From: a virus
Reading direction: 5' to 3' (one strand)
DNA length: 59,079 nucleotides
IMG/VR virus record: IMGVR_UViG_3300006133_000009
In this document: positions 18,765-23,203 of the stretch, one piece after another
Numbering within the stretch: position 1 is the first letter of the stretch
How the letters are laid out: each line of letters starts with the position of its first letter
The notes under the pieces: model-generated
What the model saw: the letters and a program-made list of their open reading frames with translations, nothing else
Databases searched by the model: none
Told to the model about the DNA's origin: nothing
Position numbers and translations under genes: made by a program

Positions 18765-19004
18765 ATGGAATCATCGAAAGTCGTACACGTTCACTTCAAA
18801 AAGCCACACGAGGGAATGACTGACCTCTATTTCGGCTCTCTGAAAGCGATATATCTTCAAGTGCCCGATGATATAATCGGGATAAAATACAAGTCGCTCA
18901 CAAATGCCATTCGCGGCAAAGATTGTTACGAGAATAAACGCTGCATTATCCGCATCGGTGCATTGCAGCGTATGTCAAATATAAAAAACAAAGACAAACA
19001 ATGA
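18765..19004 (+). CDS. Hypothetical protein (79 aa)
   Basis: ORF with an AACGCAA-TT-ATG start. Its stop overlaps the next start. Confidence 0.5.
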   Translation: MESSKVVHVHFKKPHEGMTDLYFGSLKAIYLQVPDDIIGIKYKSLTNAIRGKDCYENKRCIIRIGALQRMSNIKNKDKQ

Positions 19005-19765
19005 TAGGAGCAATAATAGGCGACATTGCCGGTTCTCGTTTCGAGTTCAACAATACGAATGACTATAATTTCGAGTTCTTTCACAAAGATTGCAGTTATA
19101 CCGATGACACAATATGCACGGTAGCCGTTGCAGACGCTATCCTACGCGGCGTAAGCTACAAAGATAGCATCTTGTATTGGTGTCGCAAATATCCGCGTCC
19201 TATGGGCGCGTATGGCGGTTCTTTCTCTCGGTGGCTACAAAGCGATGACCCCCAACCGTACAATTCATTCGGAAACGGTGCAGCTATGCGCGTGTCGCCG
19301 GTCGCTTGGGCTTTCAATGATGCAAGCGATGTTATGCGTAACGCTATGGCAAGCGCGGAATGCTCACACAATCATCAAGAGGGTATAATCGGAGCGATAG
19401 CCACAGCCGAATTGATTTATACATTCCGTAAGATGCCCGAAAAAGACAACTTCGTGAATCTAATCGGCGGACTGTATTACGGTCAAGATTGGGAAAACGA
19501 CATGCCGCGCCCTGGCGTTTTTGATGAAACGTGTCAAGGCTGTGTGCCGCTCGCTTTTCACATCATCAAAGAGAGCAATTCATTTGAAGACGCTATCCGT
19601 AGAGCCGTGAGCTATGGCGGCGATTCTGATACTCTCGGCGCAATAGTCGGCTCAATAGCTGAAGCGCGTTGGGGCATACCGATTGAGATGCAAAAAATGG
19701 CACTGAATATGCTTCCACAAGATATGCTCAAAGTCGTGATAAACTTCATTCAAAAATTCAAATAA
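19001..19765 (+). CDS. ADP-ribosylglycohydrolase (ARH/DraG family, 254 aa)
   Basis: Family motifs present: GAIIGDIAGSRFE, YTDDT, GNGAAMRVSPVAW and GGDSDTLGAIVGSIAEA. Confidence 0.85.
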   Translation: MIGAIIGDIAGSRFEFNNTNDYNFEFFHKDCSYTDDTICTVAVADAILRGVSYKDSILYWCRKYPRPMGAYGGSFSRWLQSDDPQPYNSFGNGAAMRVSPVAWAFNDASDVMRNAMASAECSHNHQEGIIGAIATAELIYTFRKMPEKDNFVNLIGGLYYGQDWENDMPRPGVFDETCQGCVPLAFHIIKESNSFEDAIRRAVSYGGDSDTLGAIVGSIAEARWGIPIEMQKMALNMLPQDMLKVVINFIQKFK

Positions 19766-19772
19766 ATAAGAT

Positions 19773-20030
19773 ATGGATTCATTTTCAAATGAAAATTTTT
19801 GCGGTGGAGCTTTTTTAGCTGCTCGCAACCCGGCATTTCTTTCTGATGTATTTGTTTGGACTGAGGGTTATTTTATCAAATACAATTCGAGAGGAGAAAT
19901 AGAAGAAGTCGGTAACAAATCAATTACTGAACGCGCTAATTTCAAGATTGAAAACATACGCCCTGCGTGTCAAATTGAAGTGTTTGCACTTCGTTATGCT
20001 GTTTTGAATAAATTTGACAAGGAGATATAG
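19773..20030 (+). CDS. Hypothetical protein (85 aa)
   Basis: ORF in the island. Confidence 0.45.
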   Translation: MDSFSNENFCGGAFLAARNPAFLSDVFVWTEGYFIKYNSRGEIEEVGNKSITERANFKIENIRPACQIEVFALRYAVLNKFDKEI

Positions 20031-20343: not shown

Positions 20344-20369
20344 CAAAGGGCGCGATTATGCGCCCTTTG
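20344..20369. terminator. Bidirectional hairpin terminator between convergent genes
   Basis: Perfect 10-bp stem caaagggcgc/gcgccctttg with a 6-nt loop. It fills the gap between the stops at 20343 (+) and 20372 (-). Confidence 0.7.
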
Positions 20370-20371
20370 TC

Positions 20372-23203
20372 TTACTTCGTCATGCCGGTTGGCTGTGTGA
20401 ACTGCTGACCGATTAACATTAAGTATAAATTTTTGCCGCTCTTTCTAATTACTTTGAATCTACTGCCGCGCTGACCTATCCATTCAAACTCACCTCCTAA
20501 CCCCACTTTTTCAGTACCGTTCCATATTCGGGTCTGATAGTCATAATAACCAGCGTTGTAATGAGTGAACGGTTCTGCGAATATGCCTTGTGCGCCCTTC
20601 GGTATCAAAATAATCATATTAATAGAGCCGCCGAATCCCTTATCTCGGTGACACGCCGTTGATAAGAATGCGCCGTCAATGAACGTATCGCCAACTTCGG
20701 CTTGGCTCAAATTCTTGCCGATTTCCGGAATATAATAATCGCTTGTACCTCGCCTTACGACCATATCTTGCTTTGTCTTAACACGGCTCAAAGCTGCTGT
20801 TATTTTCGGCATATCATTGTCATATTCATCTTTCGCTCGTCCGCCACAATATGACATATTACGCAATGGCTCGTTGAGGTAGCTATATGTCTGCGTATAT
20901 TTAGTGAGCAACATACGTTCTTCTTCGATAAGTCCTTTCCATGCTTCTTCAGTAGCTGGACGCATCACATCATCCATGCCCTCTACTGTATTGACTTTGT
21001 AATCATCGAGCAACTCTTTTTGTCGCTTTTTTGATAGCTCCTTAAATGTGACTTCACCGATTTTGCTACCCTTGACAGCTTTTTGCGCTGCTGCTTTTTC
21101 TTGTAGCTCTTTTCGTTTTTGGGCGTAGTCAATCTTCGCTTTAATCGTAAGCATATCGCCGCCGGATGCAAGCAACAATTCTGCTTCCAAGACAGCATTA
21201 GCGACCGTAGTGGCTTTCGGGTGTGAAGCGACATACACTTTCAGTTTGTCAATAGCGTCTTTCGCCTCCGCTACTGCGATTTGCTTCTTGACTTCATCGA
21301 GCTTCTTCATATAAGCATCTTGAGCTACATTCCAAGTCGGATATTGCTTATGCGGCTTCAGATATGTAGGGTCAGATACCCACTTGATTTCTTTCTCAAT
21401 CGCTTTGACTTGCTCGTATAATGGAAGTGTCGATATGTTCGCGAGTTTCGATTCAACGGCGGCATACACTTGTTGCAGTTCTGCAAGCGTGAATTGTTCG
21501 TGCCAAGTGTGAGCATCCGGGATTATAGCTGACAATGCTTGCTCGGCTTTCTTCATCGCGAGTACACTTTGAGCGATGGCGCGTGTCTGCTTGTGTATCG
21601 CTTCAAGATTGCCGGATGCAAGAGCTTCGTTGAGTGCGGTCGTATCGACTTCGCTATAACCGTCAGCAACACTATTGACCTTTTTGGCAGTTGCTTTGAT
21701 AAGCTGCTGTTTTGCTGACATAGCGAGTGCGAGCGTCTTTGTCTGCTGTTGAATGAGTGCTGTGTTTCCGCTCTTGATTGCTTCTTCGAGTTCGGCGGTA
21801 GATATGCCGAAAGATGCAAACCGCTTGGCGGCTGCATTGAGTACGTTGTTTGCAGTAGCGTTGACTTGTCGCGAATGTATTTTTTCGGCTTCGATTCTCT
21901 CGCTTCGCTCTTTCCAACGGCGGCGAATCTCGTCCTCTTGCTCCGGCGTTCTCGCTTCATGCCGTTTCGCCGCGATTTGCTGCGGTGTGAGCTTCTTTAA
22001 TGACGGGTCAAGTATTTCATCTATCGCTATAGCATTGTTGCGGATAAAGTACGGTTCTGTGCCTCTATCGCGAGATTGTGCGATGTCTTCTTTATGCTCT
22101 GACACCCACTGTTTGAAATTGTCCGGGTAGTCAGTTATTCGCTTGCCCCTCGGCACATACTTTTCTCCACGCAAAAACGCTTCTGATACTTTCGCCATTT
22201 CATCTTCATCCATCAGAATCGGAGTAACGAAACAAAAGCATTGCGGATGCCAACCGTCAAAGACAAAATCAACCGGATAATCACCTGCGAGCTTGTCGCA
22301 AATGTCTTTTTTCGGGTGCGAGCGTGAGAGATTGACACGTTGACCGAGAACAAAGTCCATTTGTTGCCACCGTTCATTGTCGGCTCTGCGATATGCGATA
22401 TTCGTTTCAGTTCGAGCAACACGCATAGCGTTTTGAGCTGAAGACTTGTAATAGCCGCGCCCAGTCCATTGGTCTTGATAAGTACGCTTGTCGTAGTCTA
22501 TCCATTTGACTTTGCCGGTTGCCGGGTCTTTGATACGCTTCTTCCATTTGCGCCGCCATTCGCCGGATTCGGGGTCTTTATATCTGAATCGGCGAAACAT
22601 CAAGTCCGGGTCGTTGAGGTACTGACGGACTTTTCGCGACATAGACGCTGCCGATTCGCCCTCACCGACTGAAACGGTTATCGCGACTTCCATTTCATCG
22701 CGTAGCTGCTCGACTGACTTCCACACACGCTGCGATAGATTCAAGCCGTTTTCGCTGCGAGCGATAAACGCATTCATCGCCGCGCTGTTTCGTTGAGTCC
22801 ATGCTGCAAACTCTGGAGATGATAATGCACGTTTGCCAAAGCACGATTTAACGAGCTTGTCGCATTCGTCATTCGCTTGCGACCATTCAAGGCGTATGCC
22901 TTTCTCGATAGCCATTGTCGCGACTGAATGAAGCAGACGGAGCAAGCGTTCTACTTCCTTTTGTCGCTTCATGGATTCACCGGCGAAAGAAAACATCTCG
23001 CCCTCGTCAAGCTGCGGCATTGACTTGTTGAGCGCGAGTATTTCATTAACCGTCTGCGCAAAGAGTAGCCGCACACGTTCGGCGTATGCTTCAGTACGTT
23101 TTATTCGCGCTTGTGTCGCGCTCTTGGGGTCTATGTTATTTTTCTTCGCCATGCTTGTATTCATCGGGGTAATAATCTTCATCTTCCACGTATTCCGGTG
23201 CAT
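20372..23203 (-). CDS. Minor head protein (Mu F/SPP1 gp7-like) fused to a C-terminal ADP-ribosyltransferase domain (943 aa; true start may be M18 at 23152)
   Basis: The central region RVARTETNIAYRRAD...GWHPQCFCFVTPIL is Mu-F-like. The C-terminus has the ART R-S-E signature: YLNEPLRN, VVRRG, FLSTA and GGEFEWI (ExE). Confidence 0.8.
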   Translation of the reverse strand: MHRNTWKMKIITPMNTSMAKKNNIDPKSATQARIKRTEAYAERVRLLFAQTVNEILALNKSMPQLDEGEMFSFAGESMKRQKEVERLLRLLHSVATMAIEKGIRLEWSQANDECDKLVKSCFGKRALSSPEFAAWTQRNSAAMNAFIARSENGLNLSQRVWKSVEQLRDEMEVAITVSVGEGESAASMSRKVRQYLNDPDLMFRRFRYKDPESGEWRRKWKKRIKDPATGKVKWIDYDKRTYQDQWTGRGYYKSSAQNAMRVARTETNIAYRRADNERWQQMDFVLGQRVNLSRSHPKKDICDKLAGDYPVDFVFDGWHPQCFCFVTPILMDEDEMAKVSEAFLRGEKYVPRGKRITDYPDNFKQWVSEHKEDIAQSRDRGTEPYFIRNNAIAIDEILDPSLKKLTPQQIAAKRHEARTPEQEDEIRRRWKERSERIEAEKIHSRQVNATANNVLNAAAKRFASFGISTAELEEAIKSGNTALIQQQTKTLALAMSAKQQLIKATAKKVNSVADGYSEVDTTALNEALASGNLEAIHKQTRAIAQSVLAMKKAEQALSAIIPDAHTWHEQFTLAELQQVYAAVESKLANISTLPLYEQVKAIEKEIKWVSDPTYLKPHKQYPTWNVAQDAYMKKLDEVKKQIAVAEAKDAIDKLKVYVASHPKATTVANAVLEAELLLASGGDMLTIKAKIDYAQKRKELQEKAAAQKAVKGSKIGEVTFKELSKKRQKELLDDYKVNTVEGMDDVMRPATEEAWKGLIEEERMLLTKYTQTYSYLNEPLRNMSYCGGRAKDEYDNDMPKITAALSRVKTKQDMVVRRGTSDYYIPEIGKNLSQAEVGDTFIDGAFLSTACHRDKGFGGSINMIILIPKGAQGIFAEPFTHYNAGYYDYQTRIWNGTEKVGLGGEFEWIGQRGSRFKVIRKSGKNLYLMLIGQQFTQPTGMTK

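Follow-up and report, generated by a model that had tools for sequence, protein, structure and literature searches.

The closest described relative of the system considered here is Bxa, an ADP-ribosyltransferase (ART) fused to a MuF-type head protein and encoded by the Bacteroides stercoris prophage PhiBxa (Alexei et al., J Biol Chem 2024, PMC11699363). Bxa kills E. coli through promiscuous arginine ADP-ribosylation, and two adjacent genes counter it: the hydrolase BAH removes the Arg-ADP-ribose that Bxa leaves and rescues E. coli, which its E15A mutant does not, and the small protein Bsi binds and blocks Bxa, while a third small open reading frame (ORF), RS09440, gave no protection (PMC11699363). 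Among gut Bacteroidales, bxa orthologues co-occur with BAH-like and Bsi-like genes (PMC11699363), and, in the summary of Brown 2021 given in the same paper, non-muscle myosin II is a substrate of Bxa, which also furthers colonisation of the gut. The present study analyzes a locus of this architecture in the IMG/VR virus record IMGVR_UViG_3300006133_000009, a stretch of 59,079 nucleotides referred to below as the window, to which all positions belong unless another locus is named (related loci are numbered with the prefix L). Facing one another there are a gene for a MuF-type minor head protein with a C-terminal ART and, on the opposite strand, a small group of genes that includes an ADP-ribosylglycohydrolase and a protein resembling Bsi. 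The module is homologous part by part to Bxa, BAH and Bsi, and is a further, diverged member of that system and not a new kind. We put at about 85% the probability that it combines a MuF polymorphic toxin of Bxa type with immunity in two tiers, consisting of an enzymatic eraser and a stoichiometric inhibitor.

The toxin gene occupies 20372..23152 on the minus strand and encodes 926 aa when read from M18 of a frame that, on the minus-strand ORF map, reaches 23203 and 943 aa. M18 (23152) is the most likely start because all 12 aligned homologues begin there, the NCBI annotation has the 926-aa form, and a 72-aa ORF fills the gap between this codon and the portal gene immediately upstream (23351..24877, minus; Pfam SPP1_portal 1.1e-26, phrog_64 1.8e-47). 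The assignment as a minor head protein derives from this position directly after the portal and from PHROG families, with matches to phrog_16625, ‘Bxa ADP-ribosyl transferase’ (8.6e-140), phrog_7625, head morphogenesis (1.7e-51), and phrog_115, minor head protein (1.3e-25). The catalytic domain covers approximately residues 735–942 (20375..21001, minus), within which Pfam PF03496 (ADPrib_exo_Tox) matches residues 754–886 at E 1.2e-14. The four motifs that the initial annotation had picked out were located on the minus strand at 20858-20881 (YLNEPLRN), 20747-20758 (VRRG, with the NAD-binding Arg), 20654-20668 (FLSTA, of the STS type) and 20483-20491 (EFE, the ExE motif). The R / S-T-S / ExE catalytic set is intact in the C-terminal PF03496 domain, and R818, S848, E905 and E907 were invariant across 13 aligned homologues with identity down to 55%. 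An AlphaFold model built from the 13-homologue alignment served only for a fold search with the ART; its confidence was moderate over the whole protein (pLDDT 65) and the ART region was confident. The search returned C3/VIP2-superfamily ARTs only, with 8za7_B, Certhrax, C3larvin, Plx2A, VIP2, CDTa, C3bot and iota toxin on top, and 8za7_B, whose title is ‘ART-ARH type toxin effector-immunity protein pair of Listeria monocytogenes’, was the best match both by fold (Foldseek E 5e-8, TM 0.73) and by sequence. An ExE motif is typical of arginine-modifying ARTs such as VIP2 and iota, whereas C3 itself has QxE, and the ExE of the window ART is consistent with arginine specificity.

There were related loci in which the MuF-ART is split in two genes, namely L026 (4354..7263), L027 (4474..7218) and L028 (1657..4401), the last two from independent samples. 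The N-terminal part has 490–503 aa, and a separate part of 405–420 aa holds the ART together with the middle region. Such a split may reflect a pseudogene, a frameshift or a variant that is naturally unfused, and it bears on the need for fusion in packaging.

The hydrolase gene lies on the plus strand at 19001..19765 and encodes a 254-aa ADP-ribosylglycohydrolase of BAH type, predicted to act as enzymatic immunity by removing Arg-ADP-ribose. Pfam PF03747 (ADP_ribosyl_GH) spans residues 1–226 (E 1.5e-33) and phrog_6572 matches at 2.2e-66. In an alignment with ARH3, the motifs GDIAGSRFE (containing Glu15), YTDDT and GGDSDT fall on its catalytic Glu and on the Asp/Thr residues that bind metal, the residues matched to the ARH3 catalytic set being E15, T34-D35-D36-T37 and D208/D210/T211. 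The initial annotation, which proposed a head-protein-fused VIP2/C3-type ART facing an ARH-family hydrolase on the opposite strand, is thus borne out for both domains, by Pfam, PHROG and fold search for the first and by the PF03747 match and catalytic motifs for the second. Against the NCBIfam equivalog models, the hydrolase scored 22 bits with Tri1 (NF041672, cut-off 490) and 44 bits with DraG (TIGR02662, cut-off 337), both below the cut-off and, for DraG, indicative of a common superfamily only. The enzyme would therefore work like Tri1 without being a member of either the Tri1 or the DraG equivalog.

For direct comparison, a stand-in for Bxa was chosen by a 16-residue fingerprint taken from the interface tables in the supplement of PMC11699363. 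In Bacteroides phage Versailles (ON453897), which has B. caecimuris as host, an 869-aa ‘hypothetical protein’ carries 16/16 of these Bxa residues at exact numbering, and metagenomic proteins of 969 aa match at 14/16 positions. A protein search with the Bxa-type C-terminus returned metagenomic fragments only, and megablast of the window locus against GenBank phages gave no match. The Versailles locus runs from portal to MuF-ART, converging on a hydrolase with Glu15 and on a 107-aa ORF. Between window and Versailles the N-terminal domain of the toxin is 43% identical over 319 aa (E 1e-86), the ART domain 31% (E 7e-17) and the hydrolase 62% (E 5e-114), with Glu15 kept; the window hydrolase is also 61% identical to that of the Bxa-type locus L026. 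Another plus-strand ORF of the window, of 79 aa, is 37% identical (E 1e-15) to an 83-aa ORF upstream in Versailles. Against the Bxa-type C-terminus (Bxa residues 622–869) the ART shows 28–31% identity (E 2e-19 to 7e-17), which falls short of orthology for the toxin domain, and because of this low identity we regard it as a diverged subtype of the same superfamily; several ART subtypes exist within the phage lineage. Both loci have the order portal, then MuF-ART, converging on a small ORF, a hydrolase and a Bsi-type ORF, and both share the same domain families, with R-S-ExE and the hydrolase Glu15 in common. They differ in that the window toxin has a longer middle helical region (926 aa vs 869), that an additional 85-aa gene stands between hydrolase and Bsi-like gene, and that the host is probably a mouse-gut Muribaculaceae and not Bacteroides. 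The initial annotation had seen a writer/eraser pair and had suggested, as one of three possible roles, that the hydrolase shields the producer as Tri1 does for Tre1. That relationship has been shown experimentally for Bxa and BAH, and the window hydrolase resembles BAH as described above, which supports the suggestion for the window without making it novel.

The gene at 20035..20343 (plus) encodes a protein of 102 aa (phrog_19606 1.9e-22) whose frame is open from 20014; the most likely start is the ATG at 20035, since homology begins there. Its identity to the 107-aa ORF beside the Versailles Bxa is 37% (E 6.5e-23), and to its counterpart in L026, 41%. The Versailles ORF in turn bears the published Bsi interface pattern D-x-Q, W, N-R-x-x-K-Y-x-E, shifted by 3–4 residues; an 11-residue Bsi fingerprint was matched solely after this shift, with only 0–4 of 11 positions agreeing at exact numbering. 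The link to Bsi thus runs through the Versailles 107-aa ORF as a proxy and is less direct than the link to Bxa. Four interface residues of Bsi, N85, R86, K89 and Y90, have conserved counterparts in the 102-aa protein, namely N77, R78, K81 and Y84. We consider this ORF a homologue of Bsi, the second immunity protein, which the initial annotation overlooked when it listed two small plus-strand ORFs between the enzymes (19773..20030, 85 aa, and 20014..20343, both present). By this assignment it would be an immunity protein without enzymatic activity, binding the ART active site.

Patterns of co-occurrence across loci carry the argument that the hydrolase belongs to the toxin. Seeding with the toxin gene gave 24 loci from representative genomes. 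Twelve had a C-terminus detectably similar to the window or Bxa-type ART, and of these 11 carried a hydrolase and all 12 a Bsi-like gene, both genes always converging on the toxin. The hydrolase occurred in none of the remaining 12, which included one whose C-terminus is a glutamine deamidase (L015), L017, and several with unidentified or truncated C-termini; the deamidase indicates that other MuF C-termini occur in related loci of the phage lineage. An independent seeding with the hydrolase in IMG/VR yielded 40 loci whose sequence continues for at least 3.5 kb downstream, and a convergent MuF N-terminus was found in 39, a detectable ART C-terminus in 37 and a Bsi-like gene in 34. Because the hydrolase tracks the MuF-ART from either direction (11/12, 39/40), cognate immunity is strongly argued and a free-standing role in counter-defence is disfavoured. 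Across ART subtypes the hydrolase retains approximately 55–70% identity, whereas the ART and the Bsi-like proteins fall to approximately 30–45%. Such a contrast in conservation would fit an enzyme that acts on a generic product as against a binder that co-evolves with its toxin.

Under the preferred reading, a late-operon gene after the portal would produce a minor head protein bearing an arginine-type (R-S-ExE) mono-ADP-ribosyltransferase that poisons the cytoplasm of bacteria. The producing cell would be protected by the BAH-type hydrolase encoded on the opposite strand, which would strip ADP-ribose from arginines, and by the 102-aa Bsi-like protein, which would block the ART by occupying its active site. 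Domain identity, catalytic residues, homology to the Bxa system, gene linkage and the hairpin between the genes are shown by the analysis itself, and toxicity, arginine specificity, rescue by the hydrolase and Bsi-type binding are carried over by analogy from the Bxa system. Packaging of the toxin in the capsid is a plausible hypothesis, and its final site of action might hypothetically be a new bacterium, competitors, or the gut epithelium after lysis. Several observations weigh against this reading. The Pfam model Phage_Mu_F (PF04233) had no match to the toxin N-terminus even at E <= 10, and the N-terminal domain was modelled by AlphaFold at low confidence. With an ART only 28–31% identical to the Bxa-type domain, targets and toxicity could differ from those of Bxa. 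Of the two interface residues essential in Bsi, K89 and E92, the second is not kept in the 102-aa protein, its equivalent being a Met beside a 2-residue insertion; some divergence of the interface is what co-evolution with another ART subtype would lead one to expect. Finally, one related locus (L016, 9138..9900) has an ART and a Bsi-like gene with no hydrolase, and another (L017, 8964..9600) has a divergent PF03496 ART with neither hydrolase nor Bsi-like gene; because of these two loci the hydrolase is not obligatory.

The arrangement of the locus is in keeping with a toxin-immunity cassette. Nearly all genes of the phage are on the minus strand, and a plus-strand island (16440..20343) is set inside the minus-strand head-morphogenesis operon, between the MuF gene and the scaffold/capsid genes. 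The immunity genes make up its 3′ end, where they abut the 3′ end of the toxin; the same layout was found in related loci and in phage Versailles. Since the variable toxin C-terminus and the immunity genes lie 3′ end to 3′ end around a hairpin, they make up a contiguous cassette that could be exchanged as one. The immunity genes, as a unit with an orientation and probably a promoter of its own, can be expressed without the late structural genes. The hairpin at 20344..20369 is GC-rich, has a perfect 10-bp stem and takes up the 28-nt space that separates the stop codons of the two converging genes. Its folding energy is -23.3 kcal/mol (z = -5.85), a value that 200 shuffled sequences all failed to reach, although a generic terminator scan did not flag it. 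In 12 of 14 related loci the equivalent place holds a strong hairpin of different sequence, usually bordered by a run of A on one flank and a run of T on the opposite one, and a position that is kept while the sequence changes supports a bidirectional terminator. The hairpin of the initial annotation is therefore confirmed by folding and by comparative position, and its function as a bidirectional terminator is likely. Upstream, a pattern search found a Bacteroidetes-type -7 motif (TAATTTTG) at 18732..18739 (plus), 26 nt before the start codon of the 79-aa ORF, with further such motifs at 16400, upstream of the island, and at 20009, upstream of the Bsi-like gene. The motif is not enriched over the whole window (45 found vs 36 expected), so that all three copies are offered as leads only, the one at 18732 as a candidate promoter of the immunity operon.

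Two further small genes belong to this unit. The 79-aa ORF (18765..19004, plus; phrog_10608 1.2e-19) overlaps the hydrolase start by 4 nt and is the first gene of the likely immunity operon. Homologues also occur in L010, L011, L012 and L017, which lack the hydrolase and have a MuF C-terminus without detectable similarity to the window ART, and this argues against a toxin-specific role. Going by position alone, it may correspond to BACSTE_RS09440, the ORF that did not neutralise Bxa. The structure prediction for RS09440 given in PMC11699363 is a helix-turn-helix protein, which makes a regulatory role for the 79-aa ORF a reasonable guess. The 85-aa ORF (19773..20030, plus), between the hydrolase and the Bsi-like gene, is best described as a lineage-specific insert. 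It is tightly packed between its neighbours, and gene calls on further contigs of this phage include it, but it is missing from all other MuF-ART loci, near-identical phages such as L045 and L046 and IMG/VR phages with an ART domain of 94–100% identity included. Searches of Pfam, PHROG and NCBIfam gave no match to it, and among 1.84 billion representatives it had 12 homologues, the best of which (55%) lies in an unrelated phage early-gene cluster. We considered the ORF as a third conserved immunity protein and rejected this because it is absent elsewhere and its closest relative is in an unrelated context. That relative, in L041 (6935..7648), has at a distance of approximately 2.7 kb a gene whose domains are Sequestin and Tad2-like (anti-Thoeris sponge). 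The junction between hydrolase and Bsi-like gene (19766..20034) appears as a variable slot, empty with abutting genes in most loci, holding the 85-aa ORF in the window and an unrelated 114-aa ORF in some Bxa-type loci (L029, 6643..7015; L033, 6640..6978).

Because of an exact 77-bp terminal overlap (1..77 = 59003..59079), the window represents a complete circular phage genome of 59,002 bp, and the same phage was present in other samples as contigs of 59,008 and 59,061 bp. Its ART gene is indexed in 1455 blocks of an assembly collection, often on contigs of approximately 59 kb. The toxin is 100% identical to an NCBI protein annotated ‘ADP-ribosyltransferase [Sangeribacter muris]’, and through this identity the host is probably mouse-gut Sangeribacter muris (Muribaculaceae). 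The phage is judged temperate because it has an integrase (50223..51401) with a repressor-like gene adjacent.

The alternative that survives best is an added role and not one that excludes self-protection during virion production. The MuF-ART would be injected from the capsid, hydrolase and Bsi-like protein made by a prophage would protect lysogens from sibling phages, and non-lysogens would be poisoned unless the incoming genome expressed its immunity genes in time. The temperate character of the phage, the orientation of the immunity unit against the late operon and the promoter-like motifs of that unit are all consistent with such superinfection or kin-discrimination immunity, as is the fact that SPP1 gp7-type proteins are carried in capsids, delivery with the DNA being a published hypothesis for MuF toxins (Jamet 2017, PMC5576092; Iyer 2022, PMC9503650). 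Both the packaging and injection of the MuF toxin and the expression of the island in lysogeny would nonetheless have to be presumed, and we regard this role as possible, though we would not count on it. A second alternative places the action in the mammalian host, with ART freed on lysis ADP-ribosylating epithelial proteins to the gain of the lysogens, and with immunity serving only to prevent damage before release. It draws on the effect of Bxa on non-muscle myosin II and gut colonisation (Brown 2021, as summarised in PMC11699363) and on how common the phage is in metagenomes, but an ART approximately 30% identical to that of Bxa does not allow its target range to be transferred, and the sequence is silent on entry into eukaryotic cells; this is doubtful. 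A stronger form of the first alternative, in which capsid-borne ART and prophage-expressed immunity together constitute an injected kin-discrimination or addiction device that poisons any cell without the matching hydrolase/Bsi pair, we hold to be unlikely. If it were true, ART/Bsi subtypes would define incompatibility groups, and the 85-aa insert, like the other small ORFs that occupy this slot, could provide additional immunity of a non-cognate kind.

Less likely than either superinfection immunity or action in the gut is a timed switch of the kind proposed for T4 Alt, by which the ART would modify host RNA polymerase or translation factors early and the hydrolase would later reset the marks. 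The idea of a head-associated ART (PMC9503650) and the suggestion that MuF ARTs of low toxicity might sway the lysis-lysogeny decision (Jamet et al., PMC5576092) speak for it. On the other hand, Bxa is promiscuous and lethal in E. coli, and an extra stoichiometric Bsi-like inhibitor fits the logic of toxin and immunity better, so that we consider the switch improbable. Less likely still is the reversal of a host ADP-ribosylating defence, one of the roles that the initial annotation had offered for the hydrolase. Several ADP-ribose linkages can be cleaved by ARH-fold enzymes, a versatility that would allow the hydrolase to undo DarT-like or CmdT-like modification or to destroy an ADP-ribose-derived immune signal, its adjacency to the ART being incidental. 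Many ADP-ribose-processing enzymes are found in phages (PMC9503650), but the hydrolase is present at 11 of the 12 loci with a similar ART and absent where the MuF C-terminus is dissimilar, a convergent MuF gene lies at nearly every hydrolase-seeded locus, and the homologue BAH undoes the product of Bxa itself, which together leave this reading very little credence.

Several other features of the phage genome deserve mention beside the toxin-immunity module. A complete diversity-generating retroelement (DGR) occupies 97..3262, with a reverse transcriptase gene (97..1122, minus; phrog_1423 2.7e-129), an RNA motif (1127..1223, Rfam RT-17), and a template repeat (1262..1378) and variable repeat (1834..1950) that form a 117-nt pair of 84% identity. 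Mismatches between the repeats fall at template adenines in 18 of 19 cases, and the variable repeat lies in the C-terminus of a tail protein (1820..3262). A tRNA-Asn with the atypical anticodon ATT (A34) lies between tail genes at 11558..11630 (minus; ARAGORN, Rfam tRNA 45 bits). A DNA-modification module adjoins the terminase at 26894..28622 (minus) and consists of a TAGT/DpdA-like gene followed by a ParB-like nuclease gene, the former assigned by phrog_842 and by the Pfam TAGT match of an identical gene that L036 carries. In the related phage L027 (1..933), genes for a radical-SAM protein and GTP cyclohydrolase I are found at the same place, and this suggests 7-deazaguanine DNA modification in the phage lineage. 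The remaining observations concern two large DNA methyltransferase genes at 33555..38143 (minus), one of them helicase-fused (735 aa), RecT-like and SbcC-like recombination genes at 43758..46775, and the largest gene of the phage (54061..58692, minus), whose 1543-aa product matches only PHROG families of unknown function, with a ‘virion structural protein’ region at its C-terminus.

Comparison with other known systems places the preferred reading, that of a Bxa-type toxin with two immunity proteins, among several partial parallels. Alt of phage T4 is likewise an ART of phage origin, believed to be carried in the head and to act once it reaches a new host. Alt is a stand-alone protein of a virulent myovirus, and is not known to be fused to a MuF/gp7-type protein or to have a dedicated hydrolase or inhibitor gene beside it. 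Packaging has been demonstrated for Alt and is hypothetical for the window toxin. In Tre1-Tri1 of the Serratia type VI secretion system and in Lmo0066-Lmo0067 of Listeria (8za7), an arginine-type ART is neutralised by an ARH-fold hydrolase as proposed for the window, but the toxins are delivered by secretion systems and are not fused to a phage head protein. The combination of an enzymatic ‘eraser’ with a binding inhibitor has a counterpart in Apk2/Aph1/Tis1 (PMC10083569), where the product of Apk2 is (p)ppApp and not ADP-ribose. Among MuF polymorphic toxins at large (Zhang 2012; Jamet 2017, PMC5576092), the window locus shares the conserved head-protein N-terminus, the exchangeable toxin C-terminus and the adjacent immunity genes; many such loci have the immunity gene after the toxin on the same strand, while in the window it converges on the toxin. 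Compared with Bxa/BAH/Bsi itself, the window module reveals no new mechanism, and its contribution is to extend a characterised system to a temperate phage that is abundant, has a complete circular genome of 59 kb and probably lives in Sangeribacter muris. It adds in detail that the hydrolase is the conserved partner, at approximately 60% identity across subtypes, that the ART domain and the Bsi-type inhibitor diversify together, and that the presence of the 79-aa gene does not depend on the type of toxin, a point that speaks against an orphan immunity gene. With a natural mouse-gut member and a cultured relative in phage Versailles, the packaging and delivery of MuF toxins could become testable in a native system of host, phage and mouse.

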